Shown: piece after piece, positions 7,930 through 61,700 of the stretch | Layout: the number at the start of each line of letters is the position of its first letter | Position numbering within the stretch: the stretch's first letter is position 1 | Source of the DNA: a virus | IMG/VR virus record: IMGVR_UViG_3300025276_000024 | Location: 1 to 64,000 of that record | Reading direction: 5' to 3' (one strand) | Length of the DNA: 64,000 bases | Notes under the pieces: generated by a model | What the model saw: the letters and a program-made list of their open reading frames with translations, nothing else | What the model was told of the DNA's origin: nothing | Database searches by the model: none | Position numbers and translations under genes: made by a program

Positions 7930-8082
7930 ATGAGTAGTAAAAAATCCTCATGGCATTTTTGCTACTGGGATGAACCAACTTTTAATAATGATAAACCAAA
8001 AACAAAAGAAAATGGCACAAAAAGTAATACCAGTAGGAAAGAAACTTCTAATAAAACCAAAAAAACAAGAAGAATTAAGTAA
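7930..8082 (+). CDS. Possible 50-aa peptide (not in ORF track)
   Basis: MSSKKSSWHFCYWDEPTF... starts right after the previous TAA but overlaps groES by 71 nt. Confidence 0.3.
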   Translation: MSSKKSSWHFCYWDEPTFNNDKPKTKENGTKSNTSRKETSNKTKKTRRIK

Positions 8083-8287
8083 AGGTGGAATTTATATTCC
8101 AGAAGTAGCTAGAAAAATAGAGTACAAAGGAACAATTGTAGGTAAAGGGAAAGATGTAGATGAAATGAACATAGGAGATATGGTTCAATACACTGATCAT
8201 TGTTTACCTACTCCAATGATGCATGATGGCATAGAACATTTACTTATACAAGAAGGTGATGTCTTTGCCATTTTAGTGGATGAGTAG
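8012..8287 (+). CDS. groES: Co-chaperonin GroES (Cpn10)
   Basis: Likely start ATG 8012; IPVGKKLLIKP, mobile loop EELSKGGIYIP, GTIVGKG, IGDMVQY, LLIQEGDVFAIL. Confidence 0.92.
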   Translation: MAQKVIPVGKKLLIKPKKQEELSKGGIYIPEVARKIEYKGTIVGKGKDVDEMNIGDMVQYTDHCLPTPMMHDGIEHLLIQEGDVFAILVDE

Positions 8288-13231: not shown

Positions 13232-13360
13232 GCGTTAGCTATATACTGCAAAAAACTTTCACTTTTATTAAAATTTTTTAAGTTTAACTTGCTAATATAT
13301 TCTAAAAGATTTCCTATATTATATATGTAAGAAGTATTAATATTAAAACCAACAAATATT

Positions 13361-14671
13361 ATGAGTACAATAACAGAAACAAAGCCTGTGAAAAGTAAGG
13401 TAGAACAAAACGTAGAAGTAAATTTAGATGAAATATTCAACGCTGCTCCAAGTGGTGCTGATATGATTCAGGATAATAAGTCTCAAGCAAAAAATATTTT
13501 TTCTGGATTAAATGAAAAAGCTGATATGAGTTTTGCTGATCCTGATAAAGATGATGCTACAGATGTTTTAGCTAAATCAGAGGAAAAAGAAGAATCAGAA
13601 ACTGAAAATGTATCTGATGAAACAGTAGAAGAAAAAGAAACTTCTAAGGATGATGTAGAAGAAATCTTTGGTGAATTAGGTTCTGAAGAACTAACTGAAG
13701 AAGAAGATACTAAAGAAAAAAGAGGTAGAAAATCAATTGATGGTATCTCAGATGTATTTAGTAAGTTGATTAAAGAGGACAAGATTGTACCTTTTGATGA
13801 TGATAAAGAACTTGCAGATTACTCTGCTAAAGATTGGGAAGAGTTAATTCAAGCTAATTTAGATGAAAAAGCTAGACAAGTAAGAAGTGAAACACCAAAA
13901 CAATTTTTCAACAGTCTACCACAAGAACTTCAAATAGCTGCAAAATATGTTGCTGATGGAGGTAAAGATCTAAAAGGATTATTTACTACTCTTGGTCAAG
14001 TAGAAGAAACAAAAACTATAGATTCTAAATCAGTTCAAGGACAGGAGAGAATCATTACTGAATACTTAAGTGCTACTGGATATGGTACTGCTGAAGACAT
14101 TCAAGAAGAAATAGAAATTTGGAAAGACTTAGGTAAGCTTGAAACACAGGCTAATAAGTTTAAACCAAAATTAGATAAGATGCAGGAAAAGGTTGTTGCA
14201 CAAAAACTTCAAGAGCAAGAGCTTAAGAAGAAGCAACAAGAAAATGCATCTCAAGCATACATGAAAAATGTATATGAAACATTAAAAGAAGGTAAATTAG
14301 GTGATCTTAAAGTAGATAGAAAGACTCAAGCTATGTTATATAATGGCTTAGTTCAACCAAATTACCCATCAGTAAGTGGACGTAATACTAATCTATTAGG
14401 ACACCTGCTTGAAAAATATCAATTTGTTGAACCAAATTATTCATTAATATCTGAAGCACTGTGGCTATTACAAGATCCATCAGGATATAAAGCTAAGATA
14501 ATGGATAAAGGTGCACAAAAAAGTGTTGAGAAAACGGTTAGAAAATTAAAAAGTGAACAATCAAATGTAGGAGGTGCGTCATTAGGAGTAAATGAAGCTG
14601 AAAAAGAGAATACAAAAAGAAGTTCAAAAAGAAAGATTCAAAGACCAACCAACATATTTAAACGAATTTAA
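13361..14671 (+). CDS. Capsid scaffolding protein (crAss gene-77-like)
   Basis: Highly acidic N-half, coiled coil, basic C-end; between portal and MCP. Confidence 0.75.
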   Translation: MSTITETKPVKSKVEQNVEVNLDEIFNAAPSGADMIQDNKSQAKNIFSGLNEKADMSFADPDKDDATDVLAKSEEKEESETENVSDETVEEKETSKDDVEEIFGELGSEELTEEEDTKEKRGRKSIDGISDVFSKLIKEDKIVPFDDDKELADYSAKDWEELIQANLDEKARQVRSETPKQFFNSLPQELQIAAKYVADGGKDLKGLFTTLGQVEETKTIDSKSVQGQERIITEYLSATGYGTAEDIQEEIEIWKDLGKLETQANKFKPKLDKMQEKVVAQKLQEQELKKKQQENASQAYMKNVYETLKEGKLGDLKVDRKTQAMLYNGLVQPNYPSVSGRNTNLLGHLLEKYQFVEPNYSLISEALWLLQDPSGYKAKIMDKGAQKSVEKTVRKLKSEQSNVGGASLGVNEAEKENTKRSSKRKIQRPTNIFKRI

Positions 14672-16618: not shown

Positions 16619-16737
16619 AAGTCAAAAACTTTAGCAAGGGTAAAACCTTGCTATTAGAAATATTAGTAATAATAGATTATGCATTACGGTGCATTATTTG
16701 ACTAGAGTAATAATTATTAATTTTTAAAAACCAAAAA

Positions 16738-20194: not shown

Positions 20195-20205
20195 TTTGTA
20201 TATTA
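20195..20205 (+). promoter_or_regulatory. TTTGTATATTA motif
   Basis: Exact copy just after a terminator. Confidence 0.65.
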
Positions 20206-20233
20206 TCTATATAGTATAACAAAGTAATAAAAA

Positions 20234-20809
20234 ATGGCAAGTAAACACATCCTAAGTTTAGAAATTCCTACAGTATCAAACTGTGATTTATTGTGTATTA
20301 AAGACACAAGTCAATATTCCAAAGAGCTTGCAATTGATTGTGAAGAACTTTTAATTACATTACCTGGATTTAGTGTACCTGTACTTATTAAAGTGGATAA
20401 TGGCTTTGATATGTGTTTAACAGCATGCACATTGGCTATACAAAAAGAAAACTGTGGTACTATCCAAGAAAAAATTCCTGATGGAGTATATATTATTAGA
20501 TATAGTGTATCTCCAAACTCTAAAGTTTATGTAGAATATAATCACTTAAGAGTAACTAGATTGCTAAGTACTTATTATGAAGTATTATGTGATTTAGAAG
20601 TGCAAGCATGTCAACCTGATTCAGATAAACAATCCTTGTTATCTGAAATGAGTTATATAAGAACTGTTATTGACGCTGCTGTAGCTAATGTAGAGTATTG
20701 TCAGTCTGCTGCTCATGGTATGCAATTGTATAATTATGCTAAAAACAGACTAAATAAAATTGCTTGTCCATCAGGTAACTGTGGTTCAAGTTCAAAATAT
20801 TTAATTTAA
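20234..20809 (+). CDS. Cys-rich tail hub-like structural protein
   Basis: I.DTSQY..LLITLPG..IPDGVYIIRYSVSP pattern; many Cys. Confidence 0.65.
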   Translation: MASKHILSLEIPTVSNCDLLCIKDTSQYSKELAIDCEELLITLPGFSVPVLIKVDNGFDMCLTACTLAIQKENCGTIQEKIPDGVYIIRYSVSPNSKVYVEYNHLRVTRLLSTYYEVLCDLEVQACQPDSDKQSLLSEMSYIRTVIDAAVANVEYCQSAAHGMQLYNYAKNRLNKIACPSGNCGSSSKYLI

Positions 20810-20820
20810 AACCAAACAGT

Positions 20821-21000
20821 ATGGCAAATTGCGCACACTGCAACAAACAGTTTACTTGTGGATGTCAGAAGGCATCATTAGGAAATGGTGTTGTTGTATG
20901 TAAACAATGTAAAATAAAAGCTGATGCAGATTTATCTACCTCAAGTAATTTGAATAGAGAATTAGCTAGGCAACAGATTCAAGATTTAAGAAATAAATAA
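20821..21000 (+). CDS. 59-aa Cys-rich mini-protein (not in ORF track)
   Basis: MANCAHCNKQFTCGCQKASLGNGVVVCKQCK...; 6 Cys in first 30 aa; fills the gap exactly. Confidence 0.8.
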   Translation: MANCAHCNKQFTCGCQKASLGNGVVVCKQCKIKADADLSTSSNLNRELARQQIQDLRNK

Positions 21001-31250: not shown

Positions 31251-31258
31251 TATCTTTG
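31251..31258 (+). promoter_or_regulatory. Bacteroidota sigma-A -7 element
   Basis: TATCTTTG, intergenic; near-matches TATCTTAG (23948), TATCTTTA (34565), TAATTTTA (55392) in other gaps. Confidence 0.65.
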
Positions 31259-31289
31259 CTAATAATAATTATTAAAACCAAATATTGAG

Positions 31290-31550
31290 ATGGCTAAAAA
31301 AGCAAAAAAAATATCTGCAAAAGAACTTGAAAATATCAAGTCACTTCAAGAAAAAATCAATACTGTAATTATGAATTTAGGTAATGCAGTAGTAGTACAA
31401 AATCAACTTACTTCAACTCATGTAGGTTTACAAGAAGAGTGGAAAGAAGAAACTTCTAAGCTAGAAAAAAAGTATGGTAATGTAAACATTAGTTTAGAAG
31501 ACGGTGCAATTTCAGAAATTGTAGAAGAAGTTCCTTTATCAGCAGTATAA
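31290..31550 (+). CDS. Small coiled-coil protein (fibre chaperone-like)
   Basis: KISAKEL..IKSLQ..LG..LEKKYGNVNISLEDG family pattern. Confidence 0.7.
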   Translation: MAKKAKKISAKELENIKSLQEKINTVIMNLGNAVVVQNQLTSTHVGLQEEWKEETSKLEKKYGNVNISLEDGAISEIVEEVPLSAV

Positions 31551-31616
31551 CATCCTTTCATATTTGTTAGTATAAAATTTTTTAAGACCAGCATTTCTTG
31601 TTTGGTTTTAAAAAAT

Positions 31617-31627
31617 TTTGTATATTA
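31617..31627 (+). promoter_or_regulatory. TTTGTATATTA motif
   Basis: Exact copy at the foot of a long AT-rich hairpin (31575-31619). Confidence 0.65.
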
Positions 31628-31678
31628 TTAATGTATATAGTTTACAACAAAACATTACATTAGATAAATAACATTAAT

Positions 31679-33895
31679 ATGATCCCAACAAATTCAAGTG
31701 GCACAACCAATGGGTGTGACAATATATCATCTAATTGCGTTATATGGCAAGGTCCAGACATTACATGTATAGATTTATGTAGTGGAGATACAATTAGTGA
31801 AGTCACATTTAAATTAGCAACAAAGGTATGTAAGCTTATTACTGATGGTGTAGCAGCAAATCCAAGTTTAGTTGGTTTAGATCTCAAATGTTTAAATATT
31901 GTAGGAGTAACTCCTACCACCTTAGTTCCTGTACTGCAGGAAATGGTAGATTCTATATGTAGAAATACAGCATCAGGTGGGGGAAGAAGTAATACAACTA
32001 CATTACCTATAATGACTTTACCTGCATGTTTGCAGTATAATAATAAAGAAGGTAATCCAGTAACTTCATTACCACTAGATCAGTTTGCTACTCTTATAGC
32101 AAATCAAGTATGTACTAATTTAGCTAGTATAAATCTTATTAATTCTACATTAACTAGTTATAGTTCTAGATTAGATGTATTAGAAGCTTGCGTGTTACCT
32201 TGTTCAGGTGGTGTTGTAGAAGCTCAAATTGTTCCTACTTGCGTTAGTAATATAGGAACTTTAACTAATGTCTCAGTAGTAGTACTAGCATTAGAAAGTG
32301 CATTTTGTGCATTTAGGAGTGCAGTAGGTTTAGTTAGTGCAATCAACGGTGCAGTTTCACAAAGTGGTTTAACTGGATCAAGTAAACAATTAGCAGCATC
32401 AACTGGTACATATAGTGGTATAACAGGATGGAATAATAATCCTAATACATTAGCTGAATCAGTACAGAATGCATGGGTTGTAATTGATGATATGTATGCT
32501 GCAATAACAAGTGTTCAAAATAATTGTTGTCCAGGTGGATGTGAAAGTGTAGTATTTGGATATACTACAGCAAATACATTAACAAGTGGATTTATTACGG
32601 ATGTTGTGTTTAACTTTATACCTTCTAGTATACCTAGTACATTTACTGATTCATCTGGTTATAGTCAAATTACTATTACAGATGCTTTAGGTGCTTCAAT
32701 AAATCAAGTGGTAAGTGTTAGTTCATTACAAAACAATACAACAGGTATTTCAATTAATACAGGTTCATTAAATACTTTTCAAAATTTATCTGTAAGTGTA
32801 GACTTTAGAGTAACTGACGGTTCAGATACATGTGAATCAAATTCAGCAAGTGTAATATCAGGTATAGTACCTTGCCCAAACACAACAATAACAAGTATTA
32901 CAGCAACAGGCTTTACATTAAATATTGCTAATGTATTAGGAACTACTGCGGTATATACTATAGATATATTAGATCCATCAAATGTAGTTGTAGCTACATA
33001 CACACAAAATAGCCCATCAGGTAATTTTGCACATGCATTTACTGGTTTAATTGCTAATACAGCATATAATATCAGAACTACAATAGTAATACAAGGAGCT
33101 ACTAAAATTTGTAATTTAATTCCTGTCTCAACACAAGCAGCTGGTTCACCATGTTCAGCTGGATTAGATGTAGCATTTATATTAGATTATTCAGTTTCTA
33201 TGGAGCCTTCAGTAAAAGTTCTTAAATCAGCAATGGGAGGTGTAACAACTACCATAGCTAATCAAGTTGGAGGAAATAACTATAGACTAGGTTTAGTTAC
33301 TGTTGATGAAGATACTTCAGAGTTACCTAATTATGCAGCTTGTACAGATTACACAAGTTTACCTGCATCACAAAAAATCTCAAATACTGGATCAGCTGGA
33401 ACAAACCAGTACTATACAGCATGGGAGATGTTTGCTACGAATAACAAAACAAGCTTTGAATCTACCTTTGCAAAATTAAATGGTGGAGTTGTAGGTGGAG
33501 CTGGATGTATTCAAATGGGTGATGGAGCAGGTTCAGCAGAACCAATGGATATTGCAATTGAAAATGTAGTTGGTGCAAATAATTTTGTTGGAGCATATAA
33601 TTCTAATATTGCTAAATATGTTTTAGCATTTACAGATCAGCTACCATCAGGAGAAGGAAATGCAATGTCATCTACAGTATATGCAAGAATACTAAGCTTA
33701 ATTACGACATGTAACAATAAAGGTATTAAAGTCTTTGTCTTTGGTGCAGGTGTTAATTTAACTTGGGATAATGGTGGAACAATTTCTCCAGCAATATATC
33801 CTTGGAGAGAGTTAGCAACTCAAACAAGTGGTGGATATTTTGCAAATATTGATCAACCAACAATTCAGAATGCAATAATTAATGGATGTGCATAA
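31679..33895 (+). CDS. Cys-rich tail protein with FN3 and vWA domains
   Basis: SSNCVIWQGPDI.C N-term; FTGLIANTAYNI (FN3); LDVAFILDYSVSM (MIDAS DxSxS), RLGLVT, AFTDQ. Confidence 0.8.
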   Translation: MIPTNSSGTTNGCDNISSNCVIWQGPDITCIDLCSGDTISEVTFKLATKVCKLITDGVAANPSLVGLDLKCLNIVGVTPTTLVPVLQEMVDSICRNTASGGGRSNTTTLPIMTLPACLQYNNKEGNPVTSLPLDQFATLIANQVCTNLASINLINSTLTSYSSRLDVLEACVLPCSGGVVEAQIVPTCVSNIGTLTNVSVVVLALESAFCAFRSAVGLVSAINGAVSQSGLTGSSKQLAASTGTYSGITGWNNNPNTLAESVQNAWVVIDDMYAAITSVQNNCCPGGCESVVFGYTTANTLTSGFITDVVFNFIPSSIPSTFTDSSGYSQITITDALGASINQVVSVSSLQNNTTGISINTGSLNTFQNLSVSVDFRVTDGSDTCESNSASVISGIVPCPNTTITSITATGFTLNIANVLGTTAVYTIDILDPSNVVVATYTQNSPSGNFAHAFTGLIANTAYNIRTTIVIQGATKICNLIPVSTQAAGSPCSAGLDVAFILDYSVSMEPSVKVLKSAMGGVTTTIANQVGGNNYRLGLVTVDEDTSELPNYAACTDYTSLPASQKISNTGSAGTNQYYTAWEMFATNNKTSFESTFAKLNGGVVGGAGCIQMGDGAGSAEPMDIAIENVVGANNFVGAYNSNIAKYVLAFTDQLPSGEGNAMSSTVYARILSLITTCNNKGIKVFVFGAGVNLTWDNGGTISPAIYPWRELATQTSGGYFANIDQPTIQNAIINGCA

Positions 33896-33919
33896 AAGAA
33901 AAAAATAAAAAATAAAAAA

Positions 33920-34480
33920 ATGGCATGTAATTGTACAAAATGTAGTCAAAAATGTGGATGTGCTGATACAGCAATCACTAATGCATGTACATACACTGAT
34001 TGTAGTGTAGGTAGTGAAAGATGTGATGATGTTCAGTGTGCATCATGTGTAAGTTATTGTGGTACTTCATTTCAAATTGGAGCTGCTAATGCACAGATAA
34101 CAATAACTTCTGGGGAAAGATTAGATTCTATTATTCAGAAGTACGCTATGATATTAGCAAATGGATTAGGTAGTTGTACATCAAATGATACTCAACATGA
34201 TCCATACAATGTATATGCAGGAACAGTAACAAATAGTACAATTTCAGTATTATGGGATGGTATATATAGTAGTAGTAATGGAGTTAATGTTTATATTGAT
34301 ACTCAAGTTAGTCCAAGTGGATGGGTATTACAAAACACAAGTCCAATAGTTGTTACAACAAATAACTTTACTATTTCAAATTTAGTGGCTAGTACAGCAT
34401 ATAAAATAAAAGTTGTTGATAATGGGAACTCAGCTTCCTGTAAACCAATAGAAATACTTATTTCTACATTAGCAACATAA
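33920..34480 (+). CDS. Cys-rich protein with FN3 domain
   Basis: 11 Cys in first 47 aa; FTISNLVASTAYKIKV. Confidence 0.75.
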   Translation: MACNCTKCSQKCGCADTAITNACTYTDCSVGSERCDDVQCASCVSYCGTSFQIGAANAQITITSGERLDSIIQKYAMILANGLGSCTSNDTQHDPYNVYAGTVTNSTISVLWDGIYSSSNGVNVYIDTQVSPSGWVLQNTSPIVVTTNNFTISNLVASTAYKIKVVDNGNSASCKPIEILISTLAT

Positions 34481-34485
34481 AAGAA

Positions 34486-34562
34486 CAACATGCAAGTGGT
34501 TTGTTGGTTTTCTACTGCAAACGTTGGAAGAGGCTGGGTTTCACCTGGTCTCTTTTTTTTTT
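34486..34562 (+). ncRNA. Candidate 3'-UTR small RNA (hairpin with 12-nt loop + terminator)
   Basis: TGC(A)AGTGG-[TTTGTTGGTTTT]-CTACTGCA closed by CAAC/GTTG, followed by a terminator. Confidence 0.35.
34528..34562 (+). terminator. Intrinsic terminator
   Basis: AGAGGCTGGGT-TTC-ACCTGGTCTCT + T tract. Confidence 0.85.
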
Positions 34563-34599
34563 ACTATCTTTACAATAAAAAATCTTAATAAAAAAATCA

Positions 34600-35823
34600 A
34601 TGGCTAATTTAAAACAAAAAGTTCTAGACAGTTTAAAATGGAAAAAACATCCTTCTTATTGTGCTGATAAATTAAATATCACAGAAGACCAATATGTAAA
34701 ATTAAAGAAAAGCATTTTACGTGAAAGAAAAGTCAAAAAGAAAAAATCAATATTCTTTAATAAAGCTGCAGATAATGCACAACTAGTTGAATCAATTGAT
34801 TTAGAAAGAGGAGAAGGAAAAATATCAGGAACATTTGATTATGAACCTAAAAGTGCTGAAGAAATAATTTCTTTATTAAAGATAGATACAAATAAATGGA
34901 AGCTATCACAATATTGGAATAAACAAATGGGTGATCATTGGAGAGTGTCAGCTTTAGTTTCTCAAGTTAAAAATCCAGAAGAAAAATTATTTGAAGAGTT
35001 ATTAGCAAATTGGAATCCTAAAACATATAAAATACCCAAAGTAAATTTAAAGAAAATTAAATCAGATGAACCTGTGTGTGGTGTAATATCTTTACAAGAT
35101 ATACATTTTGGTAAAGAAGGTAATGACACCATAGATAAAGATTTTGAAGATACTGTTACATATCTTATTAACAAAGCTGCTCCAGTAAACTATATAGAAA
35201 GAATGTATTTTGTAGTAGGAGGAGATATAATTAATATGGATACCTTTTCTGGTACAACTACAGGCGGAACTCCAGTAGACAACTGCATGAGTGCTACTCA
35301 GGCTTACGTACAGGCATTTGATGCTATGCATTGGGCTATTAACTACATTAAAGCTTTCTGTAAGGAATTAGTGGTTGTATACGTCCCAGGTAATCATGAT
35401 AGATTATCTTCATATCATTTAGTGCATGCTTTATCTATGTCAATAGAAAGTACAGAGATAACTTGGGATACTAAATATGAAGAAAGAAAAGTACATGTAT
35501 GGCATAATAACTTTAATGCTTTTGAACATGGAGATAAACGTAGTAAAAATAATCCATTAATATATGCTTCAGAATACCCAAAACAATGGGGTGCTACAAC
35601 TAATAGAACATTATTTAAAGGACACATTCATACAGATAGGAAAGTTGAGTATATGACTTCAAATGAAACAGCAGGTTTTATAGAAAAGACTTTACCAAGT
35701 TTAGGAAAAACAGATTACTATCATTACAGCAATAAATTTGTAGGCAACAGGAGGTCAGGTAAACTTGAACTGCAACATCCTACAATGGGTAATATATGTG
35801 AATTAACATACCAAGCTTTGTAA
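34600..35823 (+). CDS. Calcineurin-like metallophosphoesterase with N-terminal HTH-like region
   Basis: DIH, GDIIN.D, PGNHD, HGD, GHIH motifs. Confidence 0.9.
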   Translation: MANLKQKVLDSLKWKKHPSYCADKLNITEDQYVKLKKSILRERKVKKKKSIFFNKAADNAQLVESIDLERGEGKISGTFDYEPKSAEEIISLLKIDTNKWKLSQYWNKQMGDHWRVSALVSQVKNPEEKLFEELLANWNPKTYKIPKVNLKKIKSDEPVCGVISLQDIHFGKEGNDTIDKDFEDTVTYLINKAAPVNYIERMYFVVGGDIINMDTFSGTTTGGTPVDNCMSATQAYVQAFDAMHWAINYIKAFCKELVVVYVPGNHDRLSSYHLVHALSMSIESTEITWDTKYEERKVHVWHNNFNAFEHGDKRSKNNPLIYASEYPKQWGATTNRTLFKGHIHTDRKVEYMTSNETAGFIEKTLPSLGKTDYYHYSNKFVGNRRSGKLELQHPTMGNICELTYQAL

Positions 35824-49636: not shown

Positions 49637-52348
49637 GTGGATTTAAACAAAATAAGTGTAAAACAGCAAGGTGGACAAATGATTCCAGGTGAACCTGGTA
49701 TGCAATCACAACAACCTATGCATCAAATGCCTGATGGTTCAATGATGCCGGGTGCAACACATGGTGAACAACCTATGATGGGAGCTCAAGAGGAAATTGA
49801 CCCTCAAGTAATGCAAATTACAGAATTATTTAACACATCAATTCAAGAAGGTAATAAACCACATGATGTAGTTATATCTTTGATTGAACAACAAGTAGAT
49901 CAAAATCTTATAGGTCAAGCCCTTATGCAACTTGGTATGGAACAAGAAGCAATTGTGCAATTGTTTCAGGAAGTACAACAAATGCAACAACCTCAAGAAC
50001 CATCAGCTGAGCAGATCAATAATAATCCACAACAGATTTCAAGGGCAGAAGCTATACAAGAAGAAGCTCCAGGTATGGACATGAATATAACTTCTATAGA
50101 TCAAGCTAAGTCTGGTATAGAAATTAAGCCAGAGAACAAGGGAAAGTTTACTAGATGGGCTAAAGCCCGTGGTATGACCGTTCCTGAAGCTGCTAAGAAG
50201 GTTATGTCAAATACTAAGGCTTACCCACCATCTGTAGTTAAGATGGCTAATTTTGCAAAGAATGCAGCAACTTTTAAAAAACAAGAGGGTGGAGCAACAG
50301 ACTATACAGAAGGGGTAAGACAAAGAGAAGGTTCTTATAATCCTCCTAATAGAAAGTATACTTTAGATCCAAGATTTAAAGCACAGACAGGTACAGAAAC
50401 TTCTACAGCTAATACAGGAACACAGGGTCAGGAGAATCTCAACATGATGAATGCTATTACAGCAGGGAAAGTAAATTTTACTGACACAAGTAAACCTAAA
50501 CCAAAAGGACCAGGTTTTATTGAGGGTTTAGAAAATGAAGGTATTCTAGAGCCAGGACCAATGTATGTCAATCCTGCTATATATAATCAAGGCAAATTTA
50601 ATTTGGGTAATGCAGCTAATGCTCTACTTGGTGGTTATGAAGATATGTTTAGTGGAAGAGACACAGATGGTGATGGTGTTAAAGATGGTTCATTTAGAGA
50701 TTGGAAAGGCAAAACAATTAAAAATAAAATGAACAAAGTTGCTAATGCAACATATGATTTAGAACTTAATTTAAGTGATGAAAATAAAACTGCTGCCAAA
50801 AATTGGTGGGAACAGTTTAAAATAGAAAACCCTGATGAAACTCAACAAAAAGATTTATTGGGTAATATTATACAAACAGAAACTGAAAAGCAAATCAATA
50901 AGGCAAATGCACCAAGTGGATTATCAGATGTTTCTGCTAAATTAATAGAACAATGGAAAGCTGGTTCTGCTGCTACAAAAGCATATATTGAAAGTATATT
51001 AAAACAACAGGGAAAAACTATACCAGCTGAAGAAGAAGTTGAAGAAGAAGTTGAAGTAGAGGTAGAAAAAGAAGAAGTATTAAGAAATGGTGGTTCATTA
51101 CCAAGAGCTCAGTATAGTTTTCCAGATGGTCCAGGTAGCTATGATGGTAGCTATGGTGGTGGTAAATATACTTTTCCGGATGGGTTTGACTCTAGCACAA
51201 TGGACTTTAGTAATTACTTTAAACAATTTCAAACAACTGATTATAATAGAGATACTCGTAATGCAGCAGATGCTGTTTTACAATCAGCAAATCCTACATT
51301 AGGGCCTACTCCACTACAACAGCAAACCAATCAAATGATGCAGAACTTAGCATCAGGACCACAAAATGTTAGCACTAAGGCAAAAGAAGAAAAAGGATTA
51401 GTAGAAGAAGTAAAACCTGAAACTGCAGAAGATCTTTACAAAAAAATAGATCAAGGAAGTTTAGATGTAAACTATGGTGGTGTTGGTGGATTTATTGATA
51501 GAGTTAAAAATGGCAAAGTTGCAACAGCTTTTGGAGATGTAAGTGATTTTCTTGTAAAAGGTGCAGGTGTAGTTAATGATTATTTTGATGAAGTAGAGCA
51601 AGAAGAAGCTATGCAAGATATGAGAGTTGGTTTGTCTGCTGATAATATATATGGAACTAAGACAGATGCATTTAATAAAAGAGGTACCTTTGATATTAAT
51701 ACTGGGATAATGGGTAGTGAAGGTGATGCTACTACAGGATTATATATGAGCAAAAAAGGTGGGGGTGTTAATAACCCAGGCTTTAAAGCATTGCCACCAG
51801 AAGCGCAACATAACATACTTAAGTTTATGCAAAATGCAGGTGAGATAGTTGAAGTTCCTGCCGAGGAAGAGCAATTAACTGTAGCACAAGATACGTTACA
51901 ACCACTGCCAAAAGAATTTAGAGAAAGTGAACTAGGAAAACAACTTTATAATTTAAGTCAACCATCACAAGAAGAAGTAATGTCTGTATGGGATCAAGCT
52001 AAAAATATTGATTCAATAGGTACCGGTTTAGATTTCTTTTCAGAAGTATCTAAAAAAGATTTACAACGCCTTTTACAAGAAGCTCAAATAGAAAAGCAAG
52101 ATGTAAGAGATTATGTTTATGATCAACCTTTTTATCAAGATGCTAGTGGAGTAAGTAAATTTGGAATTAGATCAGCAATGAAAATTAAAGGATTAAAAAA
52201 AGGGGGAGAAGCTGCGTACTTAGCAAATAGAGATAGAGTTATAAAAAGAGAAATGGCTAAAGCACAAGGTGGTGGTGAAATAGTACAAGTAGATTCAAGA
52301 ATGTTGGCAAAATTAATTGCAGCTGGAGCTGACATAGAAAAATTATAA
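49637..52348 (+). CDS. Modular low-complexity cargo protein
   Basis: GTG start; Q/M-rich segments, IEIKPENKGKFT..ANFAKNA mini-domain, many xQxGG motifs. Confidence 0.75.
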   Translation: MDLNKISVKQQGGQMIPGEPGMQSQQPMHQMPDGSMMPGATHGEQPMMGAQEEIDPQVMQITELFNTSIQEGNKPHDVVISLIEQQVDQNLIGQALMQLGMEQEAIVQLFQEVQQMQQPQEPSAEQINNNPQQISRAEAIQEEAPGMDMNITSIDQAKSGIEIKPENKGKFTRWAKARGMTVPEAAKKVMSNTKAYPPSVVKMANFAKNAATFKKQEGGATDYTEGVRQREGSYNPPNRKYTLDPRFKAQTGTETSTANTGTQGQENLNMMNAITAGKVNFTDTSKPKPKGPGFIEGLENEGILEPGPMYVNPAIYNQGKFNLGNAANALLGGYEDMFSGRDTDGDGVKDGSFRDWKGKTIKNKMNKVANATYDLELNLSDENKTAAKNWWEQFKIENPDETQQKDLLGNIIQTETEKQINKANAPSGLSDVSAKLIEQWKAGSAATKAYIESILKQQGKTIPAEEEVEEEVEVEVEKEEVLRNGGSLPRAQYSFPDGPGSYDGSYGGGKYTFPDGFDSSTMDFSNYFKQFQTTDYNRDTRNAADAVLQSANPTLGPTPLQQQTNQMMQNLASGPQNVSTKAKEEKGLVEEVKPETAEDLYKKIDQGSLDVNYGGVGGFIDRVKNGKVATAFGDVSDFLVKGAGVVNDYFDEVEQEEAMQDMRVGLSADNIYGTKTDAFNKRGTFDINTGIMGSEGDATTGLYMSKKGGGVNNPGFKALPPEAQHNILKFMQNAGEIVEVPAEEEQLTVAQDTLQPLPKEFRESELGKQLYNLSQPSQEEVMSVWDQAKNIDSIGTGLDFFSEVSKKDLQRLLQEAQIEKQDVRDYVYDQPFYQDASGVSKFGIRSAMKIKGLKKGGEAAYLANRDRVIKREMAKAQGGGEIVQVDSRMLAKLIAAGADIEKL

Positions 52349-58786: not shown

Positions 58787-61700
58787 ATGGAAAACGAATC
58801 TAAAGGCCCTTTATCAGAGGAAATAGTATCACAACAAAGACCTGCCCCAAGTATTATACCTGAAGGGCAGTTCCGCTTTGAACCAATTGCTGATTTGTTT
58901 GAAACTCCTGAAACTAACTTTAATGATCTATTAATGAGTGGACCATTAGCTGCTGATGAAATATCAGGTGTTAATGAATATAAAGCTGATATAGATAAGT
59001 ATGGTATAAGTGCTATGGCTTCTTTAGGTGTAGGTGTTCCAAGTTTTGCAACTGATACATATAATCCAATTGCTCAGGATCAACCTGATAAGAGTACATT
59101 TTCTAAAATGCAAGAGCTTTCTACTCTGCCAAATGCACCCGTGTCTACTAATAGATTAGCTCCTGTGTTTTCAGGAATGAGACAAACTCAATTTTTGAGA
59201 TATTATAATCATCCTGAATTTGATAAGTTAGGTTTTTCACCATATGCAAATATGGAGAACTTTTATAATGAGAATTCTACTATATGGGATGATATGGAAA
59301 GAATGAGAGGACAATGGTTTTCTCTAGCCGGTACTGGATTAAATTCTGTATATGGATCACTTACAAGTGGTACTGATTACCTAGAACCAGACTTAGCTTC
59401 TGCTTCAGAATTTGAAGATATAATGGCAATCTCTTCTTCTACTAGAGGTGGAGTAGGTGGTTTCATTAATAACTTAGCTGCTAACTCTGCATACACAGGG
59501 GGTATACTTGCATCAATAGCAATTGAAGAAGTAATACTTGCAGGAGCAGCAGCATTACAAGGTGGTATGAATCCTGTTTCTGATGCAGCTCTTATAGCAA
59601 GAACCGCTAAGAATACAGTAACAGGTACAAAAGCTCTTTATAGTTTTACAAAATTATTTGAGAGAACAAGAAAGATATTACAAAAAGCTAAAGAATTAGA
59701 AACAGCAAGAGATTTTTTTACTGCTGTAAAATCAGGAGGTAAAATGTCACTTAATCTATTAGGTAAAGGATTTACACCTAATACAGTAAAGGCATTTAGA
59801 AATATTAAGACTGCTGAAAATGCTGGTCAGAATATGTCTAATCTAGCTAAGATGTCTACTAAGTTTGGTGGATTTTATAGAGACCTTAGAGCAGTTAATT
59901 TAGCAATGGCTGAATCTAAACTTGAAGCAGGAATGGTTTACAACCAGGTAATGAGACAAGGTTTAACAGAGGCATCTAATAAAAATATGGGTAAAGGACC
60001 CGGAGAAGATTTTGAAGGAGATATAGCCAATGCAGCAAACAATGCATCATTCAAAGCTATGTTAGCTAATGCACCTTTAATTTATGCAAGTAACTGGTTT
60101 GTTATTGGTAATGCATTAGGTGGTTTTCAAAGAGGAATACAAAGAACATTAGGTAATACATTTCAAAAAGGTTTTGCTAAAAATATAGTTAATACTGCAG
60201 GTAAGAAAGTAGTAAACTCTGCTGGTGAATTAATTAAAAGCCCATTTAAATATGTAGGCAATAGCTTTTCAAACATGTGGGGTAAGGTTAAAGCTGGTGG
60301 CTTTAAAGGTCTTACCGGTGCAGGTAGTATAGCAATGCTTGATTATTTTGCTGCTAACGTTGCAGAAGGTATACAAGAGATTGGACAGGAAGCTATCTCA
60401 GCAGCAACTGTAGGTTACTATACTGAAATACTAGATAATCCTGCACAAGGAGGTATTGATTTAAGAAATCAAATGATAATGTCTGCAATGGGTGATCAGT
60501 TTTCTGCTGAAGGAGCCAATGTATTTTTATCTGGTTTTCTTATGGGTGGATTAGTATCTGGTCCACAAAAATTATTCTTTCAAGGTGTACCTTCTATATA
60601 TAATTATGGGCTTCAGCAAGCTGGTATTGGTTTAGCATCTAAGTCTCAAAAAGAAGCATACGCAGAATACAAGAAGAACAGAGAGGAAATGATTGATGAG
60701 GTTGTGAAATCTTATAATAAATCATGGGATACTCAAGCATATGACCCTTCAGACTTATTTGATCTTACAAGAATGAACTTTATGGTTCAAAAGGAAGCAG
60801 CAGAAAGTATCAGAAAGAATGTATTTAGCCAAGACAGGTTCGGTGTTATAGATGCAAAAGATGCATCTAAATTTTCACAGTATAATTATATGTTTGCTAC
60901 AGGAGGATCAGCTAATTTTAAAAATCAATTACAAGGATTTCTAGAATTATCAGATGAAGAACTCATACAAGCATTTCCTAATGTATCTAAACAAGATAAA
61001 CAATCTGGAAAGTTAAGAGAACGTATTACTAGTATGATGACTAGTATGGATAAAATTGAAGATTCCTATAATAGGAATAAAGATAAAAATGTAAACCCAT
61101 TTAATAAAAATAAGTACAATAGAAAGACTCAAGAAACAGAATATATTGCTGAAGCATTAAATCAATATGCATATGATCATGTGCGTTATTTACAAATGTT
61201 TACTGAGAACGGTTTTAACAGAGCGTTAGAAAGAGCAGATGGTATTTATTCTATATTAGAATCTGAACCATTATTTAAAGGCATGTCTGCTAATGATATA
61301 ACAGTTTTACTAGACTCAGATTCAATAGAGAAAGAAATATCAATGCTTCAACAACAAATTGCAGCTACTGAAGGTGCTGACAAAGGTCTTGGAGAAAGCA
61401 ATAAAACCAAAAGACAAAAAATTAAAAGGTTGACAGCAATGTATAAGATTGTTACTGACCCACAAAATAGATTTAAGAATGGAACCTTTAAAAGAAATAA
61501 ACTTTTAAAAGGAAAACTAAGAAGTGAATTTAAAAATTATGTAAGATTCATGGCATCTAGTAAAGGTGAATTTGTATCTGAAGATAAAATAGATACAGCA
61601 CTTGAACAGATAGTTGATTATGGTGCTCTTAAAGGTAGAGCAAGGGTATATGATAAAGCCATTCAGTATTTACAGAATCCTGAAAAGTTTGCTGAGATAC

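Follow-up and report, generated by a model that had tools for sequence, protein, structure and literature searches.

Antisense RNA c4 of phages P1 and P7, which is processed from the leader of the operon that it controls, pairs through exposed loops with short boxes in leaders, blocks translation downstream of these boxes, and governs immunity (icd/ant). In phage P22, the scaffolding protein gp8 is autoregulated post-transcriptionally, the effector being free scaffolding protein. OppZ and CarZ of Vibrio cholerae are autoregulatory small RNAs (sRNAs) that are cut from 3' UTRs by RNase E, are bound by Hfq, and act on their own operons (PMC7398697). For the virulent Pseudomonas phage PAK_P3, the available part of the source describes ncRNA1 and ncRNA2 as late, 3'-UTR-derived RNAs of 120-210 nt that have no start site of their own (PMC10914365). 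Most known phage sRNAs act on host targets (reviewed in PMC12197685). Control of a phage's own late genes by a trans-acting RNA is known for very few virulent phages, and a literature search revealed no trans-acting phage-encoded sRNA described for phages of Bacteroidota (Bacteroidetes) and nothing on the element analyzed here.

This element is located in the window, a 64,000-nt stretch that constitutes the first 64 kb of a 114,829-bp IMG/VR phage contig (G000) rated complete and having a G+C content of 33%. The genes on the + strand are arranged in the order terminase, portal, a 436-aa putative scaffold without a family match, capsid and, further downstream, the tail-fibre region, the hairpin, and the exonuclease; gene starts were assigned by a simple ORF rule, with no gene finder. 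The transcription unit that ends in the hairpin is the tail-fibre unit 31290-34480, whose first gene codes for 86 aa. The gene directly upstream of the hairpin (33920-34480, 186 aa) has a weak, sub-threshold match to fibronectin type III, and the exonuclease gene downstream of it (34600-35823) matches phrog_704. The leaders are A-rich (~52% A) and lack Shine-Dalgarno (SD) sequences, and several units begin after TAnnTTTG-like boxes, a combination that we take to point to a Bacteroidota host. No DNA-level relatives were found among cultured phages; the nearest phages by capsid protein are Leptolyngbya phage Lbo-JY46 (28% identity), Cellulophaga phages phi4:1 and phi17:2 (24%), and the crAss-like phage csAssE-Sib (23%).

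Several other features of the contig were observed along the way. The first 232 nt of G000 (1-232) and the last 232 nt (114598-114829) are 91% identical (212/232), an imperfect direct repeat at the termini of a contig that its record lists as linear and free of end repeats. The ORF starting at 58787 runs past the end of the window (64000) to position 72706 of the contig and encodes 4639 aa; the next ORF encodes 1948 aa. A box T(T)GTATATTAT, followed after 3-4 nt by AT(G/A)TA, occurs at 13310-13330, 20195-20225, and 31615-31650, preceding the scaffold gene, gene 20234, and gene 31679, respectively, and is kept in all relatives of the scaffold leader; it may be a late promoter or a leader element distinct from the TAnnTTTG boxes. 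The unit ending in the hairpin opens with a TATCTTTG box (31251-31289).

The element was compared in three lineages: relatives of the window (clade 1), a distant second clade (clade 2), and the cultured phages phi4:1 and phi17:2. In the window, it comprises the following parts.

34481-34491, + strand: A-rich 5' flank, holding CAAC at 34486-34489
34492-34518, + strand: hairpin, with the stem 34492-34499 / 34512-34518 and the loop 34500-34511, the proposed seed
34519-34527, + strand: linker, with a second GUUGG (34523-34527) abutting the terminator
34526-34562, + strand: intrinsic terminator, with a 14-pair stem (34526-34556) and ten T at 34553-34562
34563-34599, + strand: promoter-like region of the next unit, holding a TAnnTTTR box

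The stem, the 12-nt loop at 34500-34511, and the terminator described in an earlier note on this DNA are thus all present. In the predicted fold, the stem has 7 pairs and one bulged A and closes the 12-nt loop, and a weak outer helix joins 34486-34489 with 34523-34526; the minimum free energy (MFE) is -26.4 kcal/mol (z = -3.2). Two words of the YUNR type are present in the loop; in known antisense RNAs, such words form U-turns, by which pairing is accelerated. The terminator combines a G+C-rich stem with a U tract, and its stem pairs covary across relatives. The order of the stop codon (TAA, 34478-34480 in the window), the hairpin, and the terminator is the same in all relatives, and the gap of 10-25 nt between the stop codon and the hairpin leaves no space for a promoter. 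The hairpin shares the intrinsic terminator of its parent mRNA, which is the layout of a 3'-UTR-derived sRNA. The TAnnTTTR box that follows is presumably of the Bacteroidota -7 type; its assignment to a promoter is our assumption, based on the generally known consensus.

Within clade 1, the CAAC of the 5' flank is kept, with a spacing to the stem that varies from 1 to 6 nt, and it may be the 5' arm of the weak outer helix or a place of RNA processing. Because it is absent from clade 2 and phi4:1, it is not essential to the element. The 3' GUUGG (34523-34527) repeats part of the loop and, like the 5' CAAC, is confined to clade 1: the linker columns G45, T47, and G48 are invariant within this clade, and neither clade 2 nor phi4:1 has the linker GUUGG. 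This word may serve as a second seed or pair with the 5' flank. A search of the whole window with Rfam 15 gave no match at or above the gathering score; the best sub-threshold match to the element was L20_leader, at 23.6 bits versus a cut-off of 58.7, and it was driven by the terminator. No further copies of the hairpin were found in the genome; it is a single copy per genome and, in the genomes examined, always lies at the end of the tail-fibre gene block.

The clade 1 sample consists of 79 loci fetched via the upstream protein (39-82% identity), about 77 of which carry the element; as the loci were fetched via a neighbouring protein, the sample is unbiased towards the loop. Among the 48 distinct sequences, the 14 nt that comprise the loop and its closing pair are invariant except for one extra U in three sequences. 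All 7 stem pairs are formed in 100% of these sequences, although five of them vary, three on both sides. The observed covariation score was reached by none of 500 shuffles, and sliding the pairing partner by 1-3 columns reduced pairing from 96% to 52-66%. Many pairs in the stem are G.U, and these exist on the + strand alone. A covarying stem with G.U pairs confined to the + strand indicates a structure at the level of RNA, in the + sense; therefore, the hairpin is a real conserved RNA structure of this sense. The earlier note had offered, as an alternative role of the loop, a local pseudoknot with 34442-34452. This alternative was rejected, as the proposed partner follows Lys-Pro-Ile codons and is lost in 21 of the 53 distinct relatives, while the loop stays.

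Complements of the loop were found in the leaders of five genes of the window.

13345-13356, + strand: scaffold leader site, an exact 12-nt complement of the loop; ATG at 13361
16726-16737, + strand: leader of the 339-aa gene (the gene after capsid, start 16738), seed match, 8 pairs
7993-7999, + strand: groES leader, seed match 13-19 nt before the likely start 8012
20808-20815, + strand: leader of the 59-aa Cys-rich gene (20821-21000), seed match
31274-31281, + strand: leader of the 86-aa gene (start 31290), seed match; first gene of the hairpin's own unit

As the earlier note had claimed, the scaffold leader site, at -16 to -5 of its ATG, is the exact reverse complement of the loop; it is the sole other exact copy in the window, for which shuffles give an expectation of 0.02 exact 12-mer copies. 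The shorter matches that had been noted before groES, 16738, 20821, and 31290 are present too, with AAACCAA at 7993, 16728, 20809, and 31275, each 6-19 nt 5' of a start codon. For the groES-like gene (7970-8287), the start is most likely the ATG at 8012 rather than 7970, because the Cpn10 match (E = 5e-10) begins at residue 18 and ATGGCA, a start typical of this phage, is present at 8012. The motif is absent from the leader of the capsid gene. The 339-aa target has no Pfam or PHROG match, and the protein atlas lists only unnamed viral clusters for it; its AlphaFold model has a mean pLDDT of 59.5 and no Foldseek match at E <= 0.001.

Enrichment of the motif at gene starts was assessed in leaders (-30 to -1) of three divergent genomes, with the expectation computed from the leaders' own composition. 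The hexamers AAACCA, AACCAA, and AAAACC show the strongest enrichment in G000 and G002 and belong to the top few in G004 (5-12 occurrences observed versus 1.3-1.8 expected in these genomes), and thus the AAACCAA-type motif exceeds the A/C-rich background, a check that the earlier note had suggested. We also ranked all start regions by the energy of their duplex with the loop, a check akin to the IntaRNA ranking proposed there. The scaffold start was first in three genomes (1/80 in G000, 1/82 in G002, and 1/167 in G161) and 5/66 in G004. With the bare 12-nt loop, the ranks of individual targets span 1-27, some predicted targets reaching only 11-27, and these ranks are to be read with the caveat that U-rich loops pair easily with A-rich leaders. 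A null was built on the summed log ranks of the scaffold start and the start of the post-capsid gene, taken together in G000, in the complete clade 2 genome G174, and in phi4:1: none of 300 composition-matched shuffled loops reached the observed combined rank. This null is conservative, since the shuffles often recreate similar words.

The scaffold leader was followed through 80 loci collected via the scaffold protein and eight more divergent genomes (65-90% identity). About 93 relatives (33 distinct sequences) retain its core, with variation at the flanking positions; in every relative examined, the leader offers 9-12 contiguous pairs with the loop. Changes opposite a G or a U of the loop are mostly wobble-compatible, and one lineage has lost the upstream part of the leader but not the core. 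A conserved A-U hairpin that would display the scaffold target was suggested by one fold and was discarded, as RNAalifold found no consensus in the 33 distinct leaders. In the other leaders, the motif is kept before the 339-aa gene in four of four clade 1 genomes, and before the 59-aa gene in three of four (as a 12-13-nt match in G002, and also in G004), with a wobble variant in G161. The groES leader has a wobble-compatible variant in G002 and G004, and none in G161. In relatives, the leader of the 86-aa gene either keeps the motif or has a C-to-U change that still allows pairing as G.U. Thus, the seed is complementary to conserved start regions of its predicted targets.

In duplex DNA, one site comprises both a motif and its complement, and the leader motifs lie close to promoter-like boxes. 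One could thus imagine a single DNA-binding regulator that recognizes this site at late-gene starts and, in reverse, in the hairpin region. We give this explanation little credence. G.U pairs found on the + strand only are a signature of RNA and not of duplex DNA, the motif is displayed exactly in the loop in all lineages, and the leader copies have the same orientation and stand 6-23 nt before the ATG regardless of the position of the promoter.

The second clade was revealed by an exact-pattern scan that retrieved contig G165, which has the same loop on a different stem and lacks the clade 1 flanks. Its gene order is the same as that of the window, and its capsid and exonuclease proteins are 21% and 27% identical to those of the window. 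Relatives of G165 were collected via the exonuclease: 518 were found, 80 loci were kept, and these contained 52 distinct upstream regions. In all 52, a hairpin and a terminator stand just 5' of the exonuclease promoter, with stems that bear no relation to the clade 1 stems. These hairpins share the 10-nt loop core of clade 1, apart from a G-to-A substitution in 7 of the 52 regions and small changes of the closing pair in four others. In eight clade 2 genomes, the scaffold gene and a 322-aa post-capsid gene have the core motif in their leaders, at about -23 to -16; the 322-aa protein is 21% identical (E = 1e-6) to the product of its orthologue, the 339-aa gene of the window. Besides this core, nothing in the clade 2 target leaders resembles clade 1. 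In the complete genome G174, the scaffold and the 322-aa gene rank 5 and 9 among 188 start regions, and two clade-specific genes, one of 338 aa and one RecA-like, take the top two places.

Two further features of clade 2 were observed. The target leaders share a second box, AACTACAT, directly 5' of the ATG (L408-L415; G165 2395-2434, 2820-2859), and so they look like copies of one module composed of the seed match, 6-9 nt, the box, and the ATG. A conserved palindrome, TAATCAAATTGATTA or AACTAAAAAAGTTA, is found ~10-40 nt past the terminator, before the exonuclease gene (L329-L407; e.g. L329:1385-1420), and looks like an operator for a dimeric regulator.

The third lineage is represented by the cultured phage phi4:1 (NC_021788.1) and, identically, by phi17:2. 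In these genomes, the tail-fibre gene gp046 is followed by an 11-bp stem with a 12-nt loop, a strong terminator, and a TAnnTTTG box (MFE -27.2, z = -5.0). In NC_021788.1, the hairpin occupies about 51,000-51,035 on the minus strand. The loop consists of U with a central GG and is a close variant of the window's loop. The leader of gp063, the positional counterpart of the 339-aa gene, contains an 11-nt perfect complement of phi4:1's own loop, and the leader of the scaffold gene gp065 contains AAACCA and forms 8 pairs with it; these genes rank 2 and 4 among the 227 start regions of phi4:1. A search for environmental relatives of phi4:1 with gp045 and the capsid protein found none. As a separate observation, gp045 (minus strand, L432 1440-1470) starts 5 nt after a TAGATTTG box, and therefore its mRNA may have almost no leader.

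The earlier note had suggested that several of the targets look like non-structural assembly factors, and this description fits only in part. GroES and a putative scaffold are on the list. In the phi4:1 record, gp063 and gp065 are hypothetical proteins surrounded by genes whose products are virion proteins by mass spectrometry, which also agrees with the description.

Comparison of the three lineages revealed a common architecture: (i) downstream of a tail-fibre gene block stand a hairpin, whose loop contains UUGGUUU, and a terminator, (ii) the stems are unrelated, (iii) the scaffold gene and the gene after capsid both have AAACCAA in their leaders (AAACCA in the case of the phi4:1 scaffold gene), and (iv) the leader copies have the same orientation in all lineages and stand 6-23 nt 5' of the ATG. 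The conserved single-stranded stretch is the invariant loop in clade 1, the 10-nt core in clade 2, and the GG-centred core in phi4:1. Thus, three deep lineages have a conserved hairpin structure and a conserved complementarity between its loop and leaders.

Such a pattern bears directly on coincidence, that is, on a fortuitous match of A-rich leaders to the U-rich loop of an ordinary hairpin that precedes a terminator. The composition of a genome with 33% G+C and leaders with ~52% A is favourable to such matches, and across the window AAACCAA occurs 31 times versus ~18 expected. Nevertheless, the exact 12-mer is expected only 0.02 times per window, stems and terminators are replaced around an unchanging loop, orthologous leaders of three lineages retain the motif, and no shuffled loop among 300 does as well. 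From these comparisons, we judge chance to be very unlikely, with next to no probability left to it.

The earlier note had also asked whether the loop is conserved and covaries with its target. The loop is conserved; strict loop-target covariation was not seen, both sides being nearly invariant. The clade 2 genomes with G-to-A loop variants gave a divided answer: one target fits (the leader in G169 matches perfectly), and two do not (those of G166 and G167 give an A.C mismatch). In clade 1, the whole 12-14-nt loop is invariant, although the part shared by all targets is only a 7-nt core. Invariance beyond the shared core hints at a further constraint, e.g. a protein or another partner.

These observations, together with the constant position of the element next to a terminator at the boundary of transcription units, agree with a cis-acting 3'-end element. 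In that case, the loop would be a site for a phage or host protein that controls how stable the tail-fibre mRNA is, or whether transcription terminates or reads through into the exonuclease unit; AAACCAA would be a separate leader signal, e.g. a translation enhancer, and the complementarity would have no function. We consider such an element unlikely. It would make a coincidence of the fact that the loop core complements the most enriched leader motif in three lineages, and the same two leaders, those of the scaffold and post-capsid genes, carry the motif across 21-24% capsid identity. The result of the shuffled-loop null (0/300) also argues against it. Finally, no Hfq or RRM protein encoded by the phage was found (the control search for Hfq in Bacteroides thetaiotaomicron gave no match either), although other RNA binders are still possible.

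Thus, the hairpin is probably a trans-acting 3'-UTR RNA that pairs with leaders and controls their translation. In the proposed mechanism, transcription of the tail-fibre unit (31290-34480) would end at the terminator, and the 3' end would persist, guarded by two hairpins, either as a ~75-nt fragment comprising the hairpin and the terminator or as the 3' UTR of the mRNA. The covarying stem would hold the U/G-rich loop open, so that it could pair in trans with the AAACCAA leaders of the scaffold gene, the 339-aa gene, the 59-aa gene, groES, and the first gene of its own unit. Pairing would be nucleated by the loop on unstructured, A-rich, SD-less leaders 6-23 nt before the ATG. It would most likely block binding of the 30S subunit and lower the translation of head-assembly factors as tail-fibre transcripts accumulate: because the pairing site lies within the ribosome footprint, rising levels of these transcripts would mean less translation of the scaffold and its companions. 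We infer accumulation of the RNA, pairing in the cell, and a repressive effect from the comparisons above; activation instead of repression is possible. Since the first gene of the hairpin's unit also carries the motif, feedback of the OppZ type on its own operon, through the leader of the 86-aa gene, is possible as well (PMC7398697).

A more specific version of the trans-acting model, which we put forward tentatively and with some doubt, is that of a chaperone-independent kissing-loop riboregulator serving as a morphogenesis checkpoint. The 3' end of the tail-fibre message would repress the head scaffold and other non-virion assembly factors, and the RNA and its regulon would have stayed associated from a time before the separation of lineages with capsids 21-24% identical. 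If true, no known sRNA regulon of virulent phages would be more deeply conserved, and phages of Bacteroidota would have their first example.

A conserved partner in the host would also be in keeping with the extreme conservation of the loop among phages that are otherwise very divergent, and most known phage sRNAs hit host targets (PMC12197685). The RNA might then act on a host RNA in takeover or counter-defence, the matches to phage leaders being secondary. We find this quite improbable, as it leaves the motif before the same phage genes in three lineages unexplained. Two Flavobacteriaceae 16S rRNAs lack UUGGUUU, so the version in which the loop mimics rRNA is unsupported and was dropped. There is also no homologous hairpin in 150 Flavobacteriaceae genomes. 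The search for a host copy of the RNA in these genomes with model R1 gave only terminator-like matches, the best of which (L310) buries a similar stretch inside a stem, and the matches in genome contigs proved to be phage contigs binned into MAGs and one chance match.

We file the element as a presumptive new RNA family of the 3'-UTR-derived base-pairing kind with a predicted, deeply conserved regulon, since no curated family matches it. It recurs as one element in hundreds of environmental phage genomes, with a short conserved list of predicted targets, and suggests post-transcriptional balancing of head-assembly factors against tail-fibre expression. As such, it is a candidate for a new Rfam family and provides a handle on translation regulation in SD-less leaders. 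The same architecture is present in phi4:1 and phi17:2, which are cultured together with Cellulophaga baltica, and therefore the idea is testable at the bench.

Among the known systems, c4 is likewise a structured phage RNA that acts by loop pairing; it has no sequence or positional likeness to the present element and does not act in morphogenesis. In P22, synthesis of the scaffold is likewise tuned after transcription by the state of assembly; here, the effector would be the RNA of the tail-fibre message in place of the gp8 protein. The likeness to ncRNA1 and ncRNA2 of PAK_P3 is that of a small RNA of a lytic phage without its own start site; in contrast to the conserved set of targets predicted here, the available part of the source reports neither targets nor functions for these RNAs, and their host is unrelated (PMC10914365). 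OppZ and CarZ are similar in that the RNA is part of an operon's 3' UTR and uses the operon's intrinsic terminator, and in that a conserved seed pairs with the translation-start region to inhibit translation, as is predicted for the phage element. The differences are that OppZ and CarZ are proteobacterial, whereas the host of the phage is probably a member of Bacteroidota; that they are known from experiment, and the present element from sequence alone; and that its seed is displayed in the loop of a hairpin, with the main predicted targets belonging to other transcription units up to 21 kb away.
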